Shown here piece after piece: positions 8,816 through 23,069 of a DNA stretch of 64,000 bases. A program made the translations under genes and the position numbers. How positions within the stretch are numbered: the first letter of the stretch is position 1; each line of letters opens with the position of its first letter. The DNA comes from Escherichia phage ECO71P1: the sequence record OP172789; one strand, 5' to 3'. The notes beneath the pieces are model-generated. The model saw only the letters and a list, made by a program, of their open reading frames with translations, ran no database searches and had not been told where the DNA came from.

Positions 8816-9999
8816 TGAACATTCCAGAATTTAATAATGAGCCAGTGATTCAGTTCAACGCGCAACAGATTGATGCCATCGAAAAGGCCGTTGCATGGTA
8901 CAAGCGATTGCAGGACGGTAAAACGACGAAGCGCGTGTTTTTCATCGCTGGCTATGCAGGAACAGGTAAAACCTCTATTGCGCGTGAGATTGTGCGCCGT
9001 TGTGTCGGTGAGTACGGTGCCATTTATATTGCGCCGACCGGAAAGGCAGCCAGCCGATTGAAGCAGAAAGGGTGTCGTGGCGCGAAGACACTTCACCAGT
9101 TCATCTATAACGTGCGCGGCGTAAATGACGACAATGAGCCAATATTTTCGAGAAAGTCAAAGCTGGACGAAAAGCCGCATCTTGTAGTCCTTGATGAAGC
9201 TTCAATGGTTGGCGAGTGGGATACAGAGCGCCTTCTTGATCACCGCATCCCTGTGCTGGCATTAGGCGACATTGGACAAGTCCCTCCGGTAAAAGCCGCC
9301 GCCTACTTTACTGAAGATGCCGTTGACGTACTGTTAACCGAAATCATGCGGCAAGGGAAAGAGTCCAACATAATCCGCGCTTCCTTCTTCGTGCGACAGG
9401 GCAACCGACTTCCTCCGCGTGAATACGATGACGTCAAGGTGTTGGCTGAATCGCCGCGCGTTACCGCACTGAAGAAATTCATGGGCGAAGATGATCAGAT
9501 TATTTGTTCATATAACAGCACCAAAGATAAATGGAATTCATTATTGCGGCAAGTGAGCGGACGTATAACGCCAATGCCAGGAATCGGTGAGAAAGTTATT
9601 TGCACATTCAACCAACACGGTCCAGGATTCTGTAATGGCGAGCAAGGGATTGTTATTAGTTATGAGCCAGTACCGGACTTTGAAAGGGATGAAGATGAGT
9701 CCAATGAAATAATGTATGTAAATTTGCGCTCGCTTACCGATGGCAAAGATATAAAGGTCAAGATAAATCCTCTTTCCTTCTCTACTGATCAGGAAGTGCG
9801 CAAAGAGGCTCAACGCGCTGTTGGAGGAATGGACTATGGCTATGTCATAACGGTGCACAAATCGCAAGGCAGCGAGTGGGATAATGTGTGCGTTCTGGAA
9901 GAAATCTTGCGCGGCGTTCCGTATGCCAAGATGATGTACACAGCCATCACCCGTGCTAAGAAGAATCTGACTGTGTACCGTGATTTGAAAGCGCGTTAA
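8815..9999 (+). CDS. Dda/RecD-like superfamily 1 DNA helicase
   Basis: Walker A GYAGTGKTS, Walker B VLDEASMV, C-terminal YVITVHKSQGSEWD motif. Confidence 0.75.
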   Translation: MNIPEFNNEPVIQFNAQQIDAIEKAVAWYKRLQDGKTTKRVFFIAGYAGTGKTSIAREIVRRCVGEYGAIYIAPTGKAASRLKQKGCRGAKTLHQFIYNVRGVNDDNEPIFSRKSKLDEKPHLVVLDEASMVGEWDTERLLDHRIPVLALGDIGQVPPVKAAAYFTEDAVDVLLTEIMRQGKESNIIRASFFVRQGNRLPPREYDDVKVLAESPRVTALKKFMGEDDQIICSYNSTKDKWNSLLRQVSGRITPMPGIGEKVICTFNQHGPGFCNGEQGIVISYEPVPDFERDEDESNEIMYVNLRSLTDGKDIKVKINPLSFSTDQEVRKEAQRAVGGMDYGYVITVHKSQGSEWDNVCVLEEILRGVPYAKMMYTAITRAKKNLTVYRDLKAR

Positions 10000-10152
10000 T
10001 GTTGACGTAAATTTACGAAAAATAAAACTGAAAATCAGTTTAATTAAAGTGGCATTGCCGCCAGAGTTTTTAGTTGCTACTGGCGGCGACTGAAGGCATA
10101 ATTAAGTTATCCCAAACGGGGAATATAAAATAAACTAATTTATTTAAGGACT

Positions 10153-10998
10153 GTGAATATGGCCGAAGCAATCAAAGTATTATCTAAAGAAGAAAAACAA
10201 GCAGCTGCAGCAGAACGTCGTCGCGTGGCTGAAGAAAAACGCCTGGCTAAAAAGAAAGAAGCCGAAGAAAAACGCCAGAAGCGTGAGCAGGAAAAACAAG
10301 CCAAGCGTGAAGAAGCTGCACTGAAACGCAAGCAGGCCGCTGATGAGAAAGCACAGAAACGTGCTGAAGAAGCAGCGAAGAAAGCCAAAGAGCGTGCAGA
10401 AAAAGCTGCTGCTAAGAAAGCAGAGCGTGAAGCCGCTAAAGCAGCAAAAGAAATCGAAAAGGCAAAGGCTAAAGAAGAAGCCAAGCGCCTGAAAGCTGAA
10501 CAAGCTGCTGCTAAGAAAGCAGAGCGTGATCAAGCCCGTGCTGCAGCGAAGGCCGAAAAAGAGAAGGCCAAAGAAGAAGCTAAAGCGAAACGCAAGGCAG
10601 AGCGTGAAGCTGCTAAGATTGCGGCTAAAGAAGCTGCAGAAAAGCAGAAAGAACAGCGTAAGAAAGAAGCTGAAGAACGTCGCAAAGCCATCGCAGAACG
10701 TAAGGCTGCTAAAAAGGCAAACGGTCAGCGTCGTGCAAAAGCAACCCACTTCATCTACACTGGCAATGGCCTGAGCCAGCCGCAAGAGCATTCCACCCGT
10801 GGACGCGTTCTGGCGGCGATCAAAGAAGGCGAAGTTGGCGTGGCGCAGTCTATCGATGAGCTGGGCGAAAAAGTTAAAGATCAACTGTTTGGCGCTTCCG
10901 TTCGCTCCTACCTGAGCAAGCTGGAAGAGATGGGCCACATCGAGTTTGTCGATGTTGAATCCAACGAAGATGCCGAAGACGGTGATCAAGCGGAATAA
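10153..10998 (+). CDS. Lys/Ala/Glu-rich charged repeat protein with C-terminal globular domain
   Basis: About 180 aa of KAE low-complexity repeats (AAKKAERE-type), then about 90 aa non-repetitive tail; AAGGA RBS. Confidence 0.6.
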   Translation: MNMAEAIKVLSKEEKQAAAAERRRVAEEKRLAKKKEAEEKRQKREQEKQAKREEAALKRKQAADEKAQKRAEEAAKKAKERAEKAAAKKAEREAAKAAKEIEKAKAKEEAKRLKAEQAAAKKAERDQARAAAKAEKEKAKEEAKAKRKAEREAAKIAAKEAAEKQKEQRKKEAEERRKAIAERKAAKKANGQRRAKATHFIYTGNGLSQPQEHSTRGRVLAAIKEGEVGVAQSIDELGEKVKDQLFGASVRSYLSKLEEMGHIEFVDVESNEDAEDGDQAE

Positions 10999-11025
10999 CC
11001 TTAGGACGGTTATGCAGCGGTAATT

Positions 11026-11052
11026 GACCCACACTTGTTGTGGGTCTTTTTT
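11026..11052 (+). terminator. rho-independent terminator
   Basis: GACCCACACTTGTTGTGGGTC hairpin followed by TTTTTT. Confidence 0.65.
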
Positions 11053-11130
11053 CATCTGTACTAAATAAAATGACTTGTTGCTGTAAAATAATTTAGCTAT
11101 TATACTTATCATATCACCCACAAAGGACAA

Positions 11131-12126
11131 ATGAACATGAAACAACCTGTAATGATTATCGGCGGCGGACTGGCAGGACTTATCACCGCTTGTCACTTCC
11201 CGAACTCTGTTGTGTACGAAGCAGGGGAACGAGCGCAACAGCACAAGGCGCTGCTACGCTTTCGCAGCGAAGAAGTAAGCCGTATTACCGGAATCCCTTT
11301 TAAGGCTGTGACAGTTGACAAGGCTGTGTATTTTCGCGGCCACTACTACCACGACCATTGCCCAATCAACCTTGCCAATATGTATTCCATGAAGGTCACC
11401 AATCAATTTGGCAGCCGTTCAATCATGAAGCTTAAGACTGCAACGCGTTATATTGCGCCTGATGACTTTTATGATCAGCTTGTCGACAAACTGGGTGACC
11501 GAATATTCTTTAATACTCCGGTTGATACTCTTTGCGGCTATAGCGAGACGCCAATCATCAACACGTCGCCGCTGCCAGTCATGATGAAGCTGGCTGGGAT
11601 TGATCAAAAGCTTGATTTCTCATTTGATAAAGCAAACATTCGTGTTTACCGCTTTAAGATTAAACGTAAGTGTGATTTGTATCAGACAATTTACTTCCCT
11701 GACTACTCCGTCAGAACTTACCGCGCATCAATTACTGGTGACACGCTTATCATTGAAACAATTCCTTTGGTCAGCGTGAGTGAAGCTGCAGTTGAAGCCG
11801 CTGGCGGCATCACTCGTTACCGTGACATGAAGCTGCGCGCAGAAGTCGACGAAGTGTTGACAGCCTTTGGCCTCTCATGGAGCGACATCGCTCTTGAAGA
11901 AGTTGAAAAGGTCGACCAGAAATATGGCAAGATTGTCGACATTCCGAAAGACTTGCGACACGCCCTACTCCTGCAGCTGACTATGGATTTGAACGTGTTC
12001 AGTGTCGGTCGATTTGCTACCTGGCGCAACATTTTGCTTGATGACGTTGCCCATGACCTTGTTGAAGTTGAAAAACTCATCAAAGCAAATAACTATCAAA
12101 AATTTGCTTATATTGCTAATAAATAA
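11131..12126 (+). CDS. FAD/NAD(P)-binding Rossmann-fold protein, function unknown
   Basis: N-terminal VMIIGGGLAGL dinucleotide-binding motif. Confidence 0.5.
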   Translation: MNMKQPVMIIGGGLAGLITACHFPNSVVYEAGERAQQHKALLRFRSEEVSRITGIPFKAVTVDKAVYFRGHYYHDHCPINLANMYSMKVTNQFGSRSIMKLKTATRYIAPDDFYDQLVDKLGDRIFFNTPVDTLCGYSETPIINTSPLPVMMKLAGIDQKLDFSFDKANIRVYRFKIKRKCDLYQTIYFPDYSVRTYRASITGDTLIIETIPLVSVSEAAVEAAGGITRYRDMKLRAEVDEVLTAFGLSWSDIALEEVEKVDQKYGKIVDIPKDLRHALLLQLTMDLNVFSVGRFATWRNILLDDVAHDLVEVEKLIKANNYQKFAYIANK

Positions 12127-12191: not shown

Positions 12192-12638
12192 ATGAAACGA
12201 ATCACTGGAATCGCGCTTGCCGCTACTGCTATTCTCGGCACCATGTATATGGAAGCAACTGAAGCTGCCATCCGCACTTCCGATTCAGTCGCTGTTTACG
12301 ATTGCGAAGCGATGGACGGTAAGACCGCAGCAACGACTGGTGCGAAGATTACCACTTACATCGGTGTGAATGAGCAAGAAGGTCTGAATATTCAGATTCA
12401 GGGATTCACAGGGAAAGGTGCCAACCGTACTCCGTGGATGCAACGTTTCACTTTCGTCCAGCCTCGTTCAACTGGCGGCTTTATCAATCTGATTGGTGAA
12501 AACCGTTCTGGTGCAGAAATCTTTACATCAATGAGTTCTAATAATGAACCAAAGAAAAGTTTTCAGTTGCTTTATAACGCACAATTCGTTTATCATTGCA
12601 CCTTCTCTGGTGATCAGCAACTAGTGAATTACCGTTAA
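12192..12638 (+). CDS. secreted protein (signal peptide), function unknown
   Basis: MKRITGIALAATAILG hydrophobic leader; GAGGA RBS. Confidence 0.5.
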   Translation: MKRITGIALAATAILGTMYMEATEAAIRTSDSVAVYDCEAMDGKTAATTGAKITTYIGVNEQEGLNIQIQGFTGKGANRTPWMQRFTFVQPRSTGGFINLIGENRSGAEIFTSMSSNNEPKKSFQLLYNAQFVYHCTFSGDQQLVNYR

Positions 12639-15282: not shown

Positions 15283-15834
15283 ATGCCACACTTTAAAATT
15301 GAACAAATCGCCCTGTCAATTCCAGATGCTCAGCGTGCACAGGATTTTCTGGCTAAAATCGGCCTGACAGAATGGTTCCATGATCATGTTGTTGCTACTG
15401 GTCGCGTATTTGAAAATGACGAGTTTAAAGGTCGTCGCGACGATTGCACCAACGAAGCTGACTTGCGATTCAACTATCAGGCTGGCAACGGCACCGATGG
15501 CGGCGCTGGTAAGCCTCTTGAGCTTGAAATCCTTGACTACACAATGGGTTGCAACTGGATCAACGAAAACATCGACATGCTTGATGCGCACGATAATCAG
15601 GTCAGCCATCTTGGCATGCATGTGACTGCCGCTGAACTTGCTGAATGGCGTAAGTTCTTTAAAGAAGAAGGCATTCAGGTTGCGCAGGAAGTCGTAACTG
15701 ACTCTCACACCAACCCAAATATTGCTGGTCAGCGTCGTTACAACTATGTGATCTTTGATACGCGTGAAATCATCGGTGTCGACCTTAAGTTCATTGTGCG
15801 GTTGAATCAAGACGGTACTCCGTACACTGCATAA
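15283..15834 (+). CDS. hypothetical protein, possibly glyoxalase/VOC-like fold
   Basis: 183 aa; weak resemblance only; AAGGAAA RBS. Confidence 0.35.
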   Translation: MPHFKIEQIALSIPDAQRAQDFLAKIGLTEWFHDHVVATGRVFENDEFKGRRDDCTNEADLRFNYQAGNGTDGGAGKPLELEILDYTMGCNWINENIDMLDAHDNQVSHLGMHVTAAELAEWRKFFKEEGIQVAQEVVTDSHTNPNIAGQRRYNYVIFDTREIIGVDLKFIVRLNQDGTPYTA

Positions 15835-22208: not shown

Positions 22209-23069
22209 ATGTCTAAGAAAGAAACTACCGAAGTTGCAGTGAAAAACACCCAGATGTCCGCTATGGCTGATTTTGTCGATATGACCGATTTTGGCGCTGG
22301 TTTTGAAGGTGCCGATGCCGACGCTTATGCCATTCCTTTTATCGTCGTACTGCAAAAGATGTCTCCGATGGTCGACGAAGATGATCCAAAACACGTTCCT
22401 GGCGCAAAAGCTGGCATGTTGTACAACACCGTTACTGGTGAGTTGTATGACGGCAAGAAAGGCGTGCAGATCATCCCTTGCGCATTCAAACGCACCTTCA
22501 TCCTTTGGGGCGGTCGCGAGTCCGACGATAAAGGCTTTAAAGGTGAATTCACCAAAGAGCACGTTGATGCAGAAGTCGCGGCAGGCCGCGCTGTTGAAAT
22601 CAACGGTAAGGTATTCGTGCCAGACGAAAACGGCAAAGTGCACGAGAAGAAATCACCTTACTACGCAGATACACGTAACCACTTTGTGATCCTGTTAAAC
22701 GAAGAGACTGGTGAATTTGGTAGCGCAATGCTGTCTCTGACTTCTTCCATGATCAAGCCGTCTCGCATGCTGATGACCGCTCTGCAGCAGAAGAAAGTTC
22801 AGACTCCGCAGGGCCTGAAAACTCCGCCGACCTTCATGAACATCGTTCGCATGGGTACTGCGTCTCAGTCCAAAGATGGCAACACCTGGTCAGTTCTGAA
22901 GTTTGAGCTGGAAGGTCTGGTGCAGGATAAAGGTCTGTATGAAGTCGCCAAAGCATTCCACAACGACGTAGTTGGCGGCAACGTTAACATCGACCGCAGC
23001 AAGCAGGAAGAAGCAAGCGGTGCCGCTGGTCCTGTCAATGAAACTCCGACCGACGCAGAAGAGTTTTAA
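22209..23069 (+). CDS. putative single-stranded DNA-binding protein (acidic C-terminal tail ending in Phe)
   Basis: C-terminus ...TDAEEF resembles the acidic tails of T7 gp2.5 and bacterial SSB; inference only. Confidence 0.3.
   Translation: MSKKETTEVAVKNTQMSAMADFVDMTDFGAGFEGADADAYAIPFIVVLQKMSPMVDEDDPKHVPGAKAGMLYNTVTGELYDGKKGVQIIPCAFKRTFILWGGRESDDKGFKGEFTKEHVDAEVAAGRAVEINGKVFVPDENGKVHEKKSPYYADTRNHFVILLNEETGEFGSAMLSLTSSMIKPSRMLMTALQQKKVQTPQGLKTPPTFMNIVRMGTASQSKDGNTWSVLKFELEGLVQDKGLYEVAKAFHNDVVGGNVNIDRSKQEEASGAAGPVNETPTDAEEF

Follow-up and report, generated by a model that had tools for sequence, protein, structure and literature searches.

The present analysis concerns one gene of Escherichia phage ECO71P1, located at positions 10159..10998 (+ strand) of the 64,000 nucleotides (nt) that were analysed (sequence record OP172789; this whole stretch is hereafter called the window). 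Its product of 279 amino acids (aa), which belongs to the core proteins of the replication module and is probably very abundant, carries a new element: a strictly phased hendecad (11-residue) charge stripe that runs along a predicted helix and is joined to a predicted winged-helix domain. The known kinds to which this protein belongs are winged-helix proteins with long charged helices. In public records, it and its relatives are labelled 'hypothetical protein', 'TolA protein', 'structural protein' or 'cell wall associated'. The reading that we favour, tentatively, is that of an abundant architectural or DNA-coating nucleic-acid-binding protein of the replication module.

The gene is real and strongly conserved. 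Segment 9000-12500 of the window is 93-98% identical to 28 genomes of the genus Wifcevirus (98.4% for FEC19), among them ECML-117, WFH/WFC, vB_Eco4M-7 and the BASEL phages Bas98-101. In nine of these genomes, the ratio of nonsynonymous to synonymous substitution rates (dN/dS) of the coding sequence is 0.027-0.057, no indel is present and the third codon position accounts for 71 of the 80 variable sites (45 of 47 in the helix-coding part alone). The original prediction, made from the letters of the DNA, had named a frame not conserved in relatives and a product never detected as the two results that would speak against it; the frame is kept in all nine genomes, and liquid chromatography-tandem mass spectrometry (LC-MS/MS) found the protein in vB_Eco4M-7 and ECML-117 (PMC7048862).

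The open reading frame (ORF) is present on the + strand at 10153-10998, where its listed GTG start (10153) lies only 2 nt past the Shine-Dalgarno sequence AAGGA (10146..10150, + strand; read from the sequence and invariant in the nine genomes). The ATG at 10159, 8 nt downstream of this Shine-Dalgarno sequence, is the start annotated in all annotated relatives. Judging from this spacing and these annotations, ATG 10159 rather than GTG 10153 is likely the real start, and the protein therefore has 279 aa, the stop codon being TAA at 10996-10998. Its whole length (residues 1-279) matches the profile of PHROG 4765 (function label: unknown; E = 6.6e-84), and its C-terminal domain alone does so with E = 4.9e-46. 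No Pfam or NCBIfam family scored above threshold for the whole protein, for either half or for 42 family members.

The predicted charge-striped helix

The architecture described in the original prediction, i.e. a long charged repeat region followed by a small non-repetitive globular C-terminal domain, is correct. Its description of about 180 residues of 'KAE-only' repeats is nearly right: residues 1-190 consist of 30% Ala, 25% Lys and 21% Glu, with 17% more supplied by Arg (11%) and Gln (6%). This region has a net charge of +26 and is devoid of Pro. AlphaFold2 predicts that residues 2-187 (10162..10719, + strand) form an unbroken alpha-helix of about 28 nm, composed of 17 in-register hendecads (predicted local distance difference test score, pLDDT, of 78-95). 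Lys and Arg occupy hendecad positions 1, 5, 8 and 9, where 44 Lys/Arg are found versus 2 Glu/Asp over the 17 repeats, and most Glu and Asp occupy positions 0, 2, 3, 6 and 7. The Lys/Arg residues recur every 3.67-3.68 residues, i.e. 11/3 (z = 15.5 at 3.67), with a spectral power of 3.81 compared to a maximum of 2.52 in 200 shuffles. Glu/Asp also peak at 3.67 (z = 7.9), yet their power stays below the shuffle maximum. Since 11/3 is close to the helical repeat, the basic residues are expected to form one nearly straight stripe: in helical projection, a 120-degree sector has a net charge of +42, the rest is net negative, and the phases of Lys/Arg and Glu/Asp lie about 180 degrees apart. According to this model, the charged half of the protein is ordered and not merely of low complexity.

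The alanines have no phase preference along the helix (resultant 0.03), and this even spread leaves no hydrophobic seam. The coiled-coil check proposed in the original prediction accordingly returned no classical heptad seam in the charged region: apolar heptad periodicity is absent (z = -0.8 at period 3.5), and only 11 of the 190 residues are large and apolar. The same alanine resultant and the lack of an apolar face led us to reject an amphipathic 11-mer helix lying on a membrane surface, as in apolipoproteins or synucleins. Pairs of opposite charge are mildly enriched, with z = 1.8 at i+3, 2.1 at i+4 and 3.0 at i+5.

The near-identical tandem DNA segments noticed earlier around 10410 and 10510 are present. 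They belong to a diverged tandem duplication at 10399..10580 (+ strand; 1.8 copies of a 99-nt period with 77% matches in TRF), whose core consists of two 35-nt copies (10396-10430 and 10495-10529) that are 94% identical. The two duplicated protein units of 33 aa have 21 residues in common. As 99 nt correspond to 33 codons and hence to exactly three hendecads, the duplication keeps the register of the stripe. The original prediction had also raised the possibility that repeat number varies among related phages. None does so within the genus, all nine inspected Wifcevirus orthologues having 279 aa; between genera, the helix ranges from 129 to 201 residues.

The periodicity itself is found again in most of the diverged relatives. 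Of 23 diverged homologues, 19 have their global spectral maximum of Lys/Arg at 3.64-3.70 residues; among 25 distinct IMG/VR members, 23 have it at 3.67-3.70, and it nearly always exceeds all shuffles. Across homologues, the net charge of the helix varies from +4 to +26. As far as these sequences tell, the charge stripe has been kept even where the sequence has diverged.

The predicted winged-helix domain and comparison with known proteins

In the last 90 residues or so, the composition is ordinary; an acidic tail closes the protein. A basic arm, RRAKATH (residues 191-197; 10729..10749, + strand), whose R, R, A, T and H are invariant in the family alignment, leads into the first strand of a predicted winged-helix domain (residues 197-264; 10747..10950, + strand). 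AlphaFold2, run on eight sequences (core pLDDT 84-91), predicts the order strand-helix-strand-helix-helix-strand for residues 197-264, and the model contains a helix-turn-helix and a beta wing, like solved winged-helix domains. Among 42 diverse members, S212 never varies, and conservation reaches at least 90% at R192, R214, K254, L255 and H260. Most of the conserved positions carry a basic or polar residue (R191/R192, S212, R214, R249, K254 and H260), R249 and K254 lying in helix 3.

Foldseek found nothing with E < 0.3 in the PDB and only the protein's own family in BFVD. Sequence searches of the PDB with the C-terminal domain and the family profile gave histone H1.0 (E = 0.24), an HU-type protein (0.32) and YejK (0.5) as best hits. 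All of these hits cover one short segment, the hhalign follow-up gave probabilities of 26% and 9%, and we did not accept them as signs of homology. NA37/YejK, the commonest sub-threshold family (5 of 42 members, best E = 0.004), is not significant after multiple testing.

The winged-helix matches include protein-interaction modules (RPA32C, the kleisin domain Scc1-C, ScpB and PolB1-binding protein 2) as well as MecI, ArsR, Fur, the N-terminal domain of MotA and ORC2. The latter group could suggest a sequence-specific regulator, either a winged-helix transcription factor for middle or late promoters or an origin-binding initiator, and phage 14-1 does have a phage-specific class of promoters that requires an unknown factor (PMC10914365). 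However, such a role does not need a 28-nm charged helix and fits neither the codon bias nor the abundance in mass spectrometry described below, and the initiator proposed for Pbunavirus is a self-loading primase-helicase (PMC12390725). We consider a regulator very improbable.

Downstream of the winged helix, the tail DVESNEDAEDGDQAE (residues 265-279; 10951..10995, + strand) is predicted to be disordered (pLDDT < 50). Of the 25 relatives scored, 24 have a tail with a net charge between -1 and -15, and the tail of the remaining one, L047, has +1. In many diverged members the otherwise variable tail ends in AE (QAE, PAE, AAAE, ADAE, SAE or TAE; 10990-10995 in the window), a recurrence in sequence that hints at a short C-terminal docking motif.

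The label 'TolA protein' is carried by the gene in FEC19, ECML-117, vB_Eco4M-7 and several Pseudomonas phages, and a TolA-like nature was also suggested by the original prediction. Unmasked BLASTP against Escherichia coli TolA does give E = 1.6e-32, and domain II of TolA is likewise rich in Ala, Lys and Glu and predicted to form a long helix. This similarity disappears after correction for composition: with SEG masking and composition-based statistics, neither the protein nor its C-terminal domain matches TolA. No TolA family was matched in Pfam or NCBIfam. The protein has no domain III and no transmembrane anchor, its maximum Kyte-Doolittle hydropathy over 19 residues being 0.61 compared to 2.45 for TolA, and domain II of TolA lacks the 11/3 periodicity (Lys/Arg power of 0.35 at 3.67, compared to 3.81 in the ECO71P1 protein). 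Moreover, the gene lies in the replication module, between genes for a Dda-like helicase and a UDP-galactopyranose mutase (UGM)-like protein, and not in a tolQ-tolR-tolA-tolB-pal context. The 'TolA protein' labels are compositional artefacts, and we give next to no credence to a TolA homologue or another protein of the cell envelope, despite the GenBank labels.

The comparison with histone H1 made in the original prediction stands as an analogy of architecture, the predicted winged helix being the fold found in H1; as similarity of sequence or fold it did not reach significance. The match to histone H1.0 in hmmsearch covers 25 residues (E = 0.24), hhalign against the globular domain of histone H5 gave a probability of 26% over 24 columns, Foldseek against the GII domain of Hho1p gave E = 2.5, and Linker_histone of Pfam was not matched. 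Linker histones H1/H5 combine a winged-helix globular domain with a long Lys/Ala-rich region, and are abundant and, as proposed for the ECO71P1 protein, expected to be stoichiometric on DNA. However, the order of their domains differs, and the H1 tail is a disordered Lys/Ala/Pro sequence nearly free of acidic residues, whereas the basic region of the ECO71P1 protein is a predicted regular helix with 21% Glu, no Pro and a strict 11-residue register, accompanied by an acidic tail.

Three other kinds of proteins show partial likeness. KfrA of plasmid RK2 has an N-terminal DNA-binding domain and a long, Ala-rich, charged alpha-helical tail that is described as a coiled coil. By analogy, both proteins combine a small domain of DNA-binding type with a very long Ala- and charge-rich helix, and both are encoded by mobile elements near replication or maintenance genes. 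The domain order is reversed in KfrA, its coiled coil contrasts with the missing heptad seam in the ECO71P1 protein, and KfrA_N of Pfam matched neither this protein nor the 42 family members. ER/K single alpha-helix domains (myosin VI/X, caldesmon) resemble the ECO71P1 protein, whose helix is predicted to be monomeric, in being long helices of almost only Glu, Lys, Arg and Ala, devoid of a hydrophobic seam. They are roughly neutral with i to i+4 Glu-Lys pairs all round the helix, whereas the ECO71P1 helix gathers like charges in opposite stripes, follows a hendecad period and has a net charge of +26. Finally, the acidic C-terminal tails of T4 gp32, T7 gp2.5 and E. coli SSB recruit replisome partners, and T4 Dda works with gp32. 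Like these single-stranded DNA-binding proteins, the ECO71P1 protein probably is an abundant protein of a replication module with a disordered acidic tail. It differs from them in its predicted structure, a helix and a winged helix and not an OB fold, and in the lack of a terminal aromatic residue in the tail; no SSB family matched it.

Family, genomic neighbourhood and expression

A tblastn search with the C-terminal domain retrieved 356 phage records, including those of Pbunavirus (LMA2 gp66, 14-1 ORF66, PB1), Burkholderia phage BcepF1, Xanthomonas phage XcP1 and phages of Serratia, Pantoea and Vibrio. An exhaustive search with hidden Markov models among 1.84 billion cluster representatives found 48 clusters only. 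Judged from these sequence searches, PHROG 4765 is a small phage-restricted family, the lack of bacterial copies resting on the 48-cluster search only. The homologues LMA2 gp66, 14-1 gp67 (ORF66), BcepF1.072, XcP1_051 and the PB1 orthologue have C-terminal domains 42-59% identical to that of the ECO71P1 protein, and share its tripartite architecture, its 11/3 Lys/Arg periodicity and its slot after a Dda-like helicase. They differ by the length of the helix (129-201 residues), its net charge (+4 to +11, one at +17, compared to +26) and the tail, which reaches 36 residues.

Wifcevirus phages, to which ECO71P1 belongs, are myophages of E. coli and Shigella with genomes of about 68 kb, distant kin of the Pseudomonas PB1-like phages, and extremely fast replication has been reported for them (PMC11990801). 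A Dda-like helicase upstream and a UGM-like FAD protein downstream flank the gene in at least 32 of 36 IMG/VR loci. Judging from this gene order, the gene is a core member of the replication/nucleotide-metabolism module in PB1-like (Lindbergviridae-type) myophages. One member, P0007, lies between the Dda-like helicase and the genes for phosphatase, exonuclease and Pol III alpha. The distant members P0035-P0049 keep the winged helix, while an unrelated N-terminal domain of about 60 residues (PHROG 4730, conserved and containing TYNALTGKSIKKFESR) and a linker replace the charged helix. Among them, P0042 (L017 6001-6648) occupies the same slot, directly before genes for the UGM-like protein, ThyX, PNK phosphatase, SDR, exonuclease and Pol III alpha; in its lineage, which belongs to more distant phages, the upstream Dda helicase is absent. 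Since the helix is replaced in distant members, the part conserved throughout the family would be a winged helix in the replication module, and the rod an elaboration of the PB1-like phages.

No other gene in the window has a codon usage as well adapted to the host. Codons preferred by E. coli make up a fraction of 0.73 (0.76 when Lys, Glu and Ala codons are left out), compared to 0.69 for the major head protein, 0.63 for the tail sheath and a window mean of 0.49 +/- 0.07. Arg is encoded only by CGT or CGC (25 codons), and Leu by CTG in nine of ten cases. The gene also has a strong Shine-Dalgarno sequence and a strong terminator of its own. On account of these features, the protein is probably very abundant and stoichiometric.

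LC-MS/MS of CsCl-purified vB_Eco4M-7 identified the protein with seven peptides (25.8% coverage, score 1197.6) and that of ECML-117 with two (PMC7048862). These detections would fit a virion-internal protein packaged with the genome, either a histone-like core protein or an ejection protein, which would also explain the label 'putative structural protein' given to LMA2 gp66, JG024, SCUT-S1 ORF69 and XcP1_051 (Pbunavirus and Carpasinavirus records). However, helicase, glyoxalase and reductase were present in these preparations too (PMC7048862). The detections are more simply explained by carry-over of abundant proteins, since the non-structural proteins detected include the top codon-adapted ORFs of the window, i.e. 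the TolA-like protein itself, the glyoxalase and probably, by mass, an ORF of 286 aa. Furthermore, the virion proteome of SCUT-S1 (31 proteins) includes the Dda helicase but not the orthologue; no mention of the protein was found in the main text of the papers on the cryo-electron microscopy of E217 and Pa193, as far as term searches covered it; and the gene, preceded by a sigma-70-like site, is part of the replication module and does not lie among the late genes. A virion-internal protein seems rather unlikely. A scaffolding protein, which would also be helical, charged and abundant, was set aside: a protease/scaffold candidate is already present in the head module (Pa193 gp24; Bas100_0008), and the gene belongs to the replication module.

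Other ORFs of the window are also highly codon-adapted. The 286-aa ORF (22209-23069, + strand; PHROG 2402) ranks second with 0.71 and probably corresponds, by mass, to the 31.2-kDa 'unknown protein' vB_Eco4M-7_70 (12 peptides), another abundant unknown. High values are also found for a 148-aa ORF (12192-12638, + strand) and for the glyoxalase-family protein (15283-15834, + strand), whose presence in the 'virion' mass spectrometry of vB_Eco4M-7 is consistent with carry-over of abundant non-structural proteins.

The gene is bounded by two predicted signals. Downstream, the scan found an intrinsic terminator (11026..11056, + strand; 8-bp stem with five G-C pairs followed by T6, -21.9 kcal/mol, z = -3.55), and a terminator is annotated at the equivalent place in Mansfield, WFC, WFH, LMA2 and XcP1. 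Upstream, scan and folding revealed a stem-loop (10055-10089; -22.5 kcal/mol, z = -3.1) overlapping a sigma-70-like site, TTGCTA-17-CATAAT (10074-10102); together (10055..10102, + strand) they are a candidate promoter or regulatory element of the gene's own. The 159-nt intergenic region that contains them (9999-10158) is about 99% identical in nine genomes and better conserved than the synonymous sites of the flanking genes. A T-to-C change in Bas100 and Bas101 converts a G-U pair of the stem-loop to G-C.

Several observations concern the neighbouring genes. The protein encoded 3' of the gene in nearly all relatives (331 aa with FAD motif, 11131-12126, + strand; PHROG 4828) carries, in the Mansfield record, an HHpred-based label of UDP-galactopyranose mutase. 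It is followed by ThyX, a HAD/PNK phosphatase, an SDR reductase and the glyoxalase-family protein (to about 16000). Since this conserved block of sugar/nucleotide-type enzymes sits in the replication module of phages reported to be restriction-resistant, it may be a DNA-modification pathway. In the record of the complete Wifcevirus genome of Bas100, the replisome is complete, with Pol III alpha/epsilon-like proteins, primases, three helicases and a ligase, yet neither an SSB nor any other DNA-coating protein is annotated.

On the opposite strand, an ORF of 354 aa (10180-11244) was regarded as a low-complexity artefact in the original prediction, and rightly so: its frame has a dN/dS of 1.4-5.7 and is interrupted by a stop codon in phage Mansfield, and its product (22% Phe, 15% Leu) mirrors the Lys, Glu and Ala codons. 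In Pbunavirus, the anti-Druantia gene DadIII-1 is reported to be encoded antisense within the gene that immediately precedes the Dda helicase (PMC12390725). Functional antisense genes thus occur in this neighbourhood, the 354-aa ORF not being one of them.

Possible role and significance

The basic stripe, the winged-helix fold, the position in the replication module and a codon bias above that of the major head protein are the reasons why we favour an architectural or DNA-coating protein, a possibility to which we would nevertheless not commit. A DNA-associated role is also what the original prediction suggested with its DNA-condensing protein, and the missing SSB annotation in Bas100 speaks for it. 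Such a protein would act stoichiometrically as an architectural binder of nucleic acid. Its basic stripe would follow the phosphate backbone of the phage DNA or connect duplexes, and the RRxK arm and the winged helix would provide a second contact, with DNA or with a partner. The acidic tail could inhibit the protein itself by folding back on the basic surfaces, or attract a partner from the replisome, for instance the Dda-type helicase encoded next to it, and the stripes of opposite charge could allow molecules to pack side by side on DNA.

Several points weigh against this role. In the other genera, the helix has only the small net charge given above, so the conserved feature is charge segregation and not basicity. 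The core of the winged helix, with a net charge of -3 to +3, is close to neutral or weakly acidic, and winged helices also serve protein interaction, as do RPA32C, kleisin and ScpB among the matches. The replacement of the helix by a globular domain in distant members indicates that it is not essential to the core function of the family. It should also be emphasized that the structure prediction rests on a shallow alignment of 8-9 sequences.

Part of this evidence would suit a protein-protein adaptor or spacer that does not itself bind DNA, in which the rigid helix would serve as a ruler or tether and the winged helix and tail would dock partners of the replisome or of nucleotide metabolism, the proposed ones being the Dda helicase, Pol III alpha and the UGM-like enzyme. 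Besides a core that is not basic and the matches to RPA32C, Scc1-C, ScpB and PolB1-binding protein 2, the tight linkage to the same neighbour genes and the lack of a hydrophobic seam, together with some enrichment of opposite charges at i/i+3 and i/i+4 (z = 1.8-2.1) as in ER/K helices, speak for it. However, a spacer does not need Lys/Arg and Glu/Asp to be sorted to opposite faces over 17 repeats, the extreme codon adaptation suggests many more copies than a replisome adaptor requires, and the conserved RRxKATH arm and the basic residues of helix 3 resemble nucleic-acid contacts. We regard such an adaptor as unlikely, if still plausible.

A bolder form of the DNA-coating reading, which we hold to be improbable, makes the protein a phage analogue of linker histones. 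It would coat replicating DNA by means of the 28-nm stripe, neighbouring molecules zipping laterally, basic to acidic, into a coat resembling chromatin or a shell. This coat would be handled by the phage Dda helicase and by the INO80/CHD1L-like translocase noted for Pbunavirus (PMC12390725). If this analogue exists, the DNA would be shielded from host nucleases, which could contribute to the reported restriction resistance of Wifcevirus, and a hendecad charge-striped single helix would organise DNA in a previously undescribed way.

Overall, the present analysis corrects a wrong annotation ('TolA', 'structural protein' or 'cell wall associated') that has spread through many phage genomes. It concerns a core gene of a whole, therapeutically important phage group that, by its codon bias, is expressed at least as highly as the major head protein. 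The phased helix of 17 hendecads and the winged helix that forms the core of the family, locked to one genomic slot, offer testable handles on this abundant unknown. If the stripe does bind DNA, it would constitute a simple and designable rod-like DNA-binding module.

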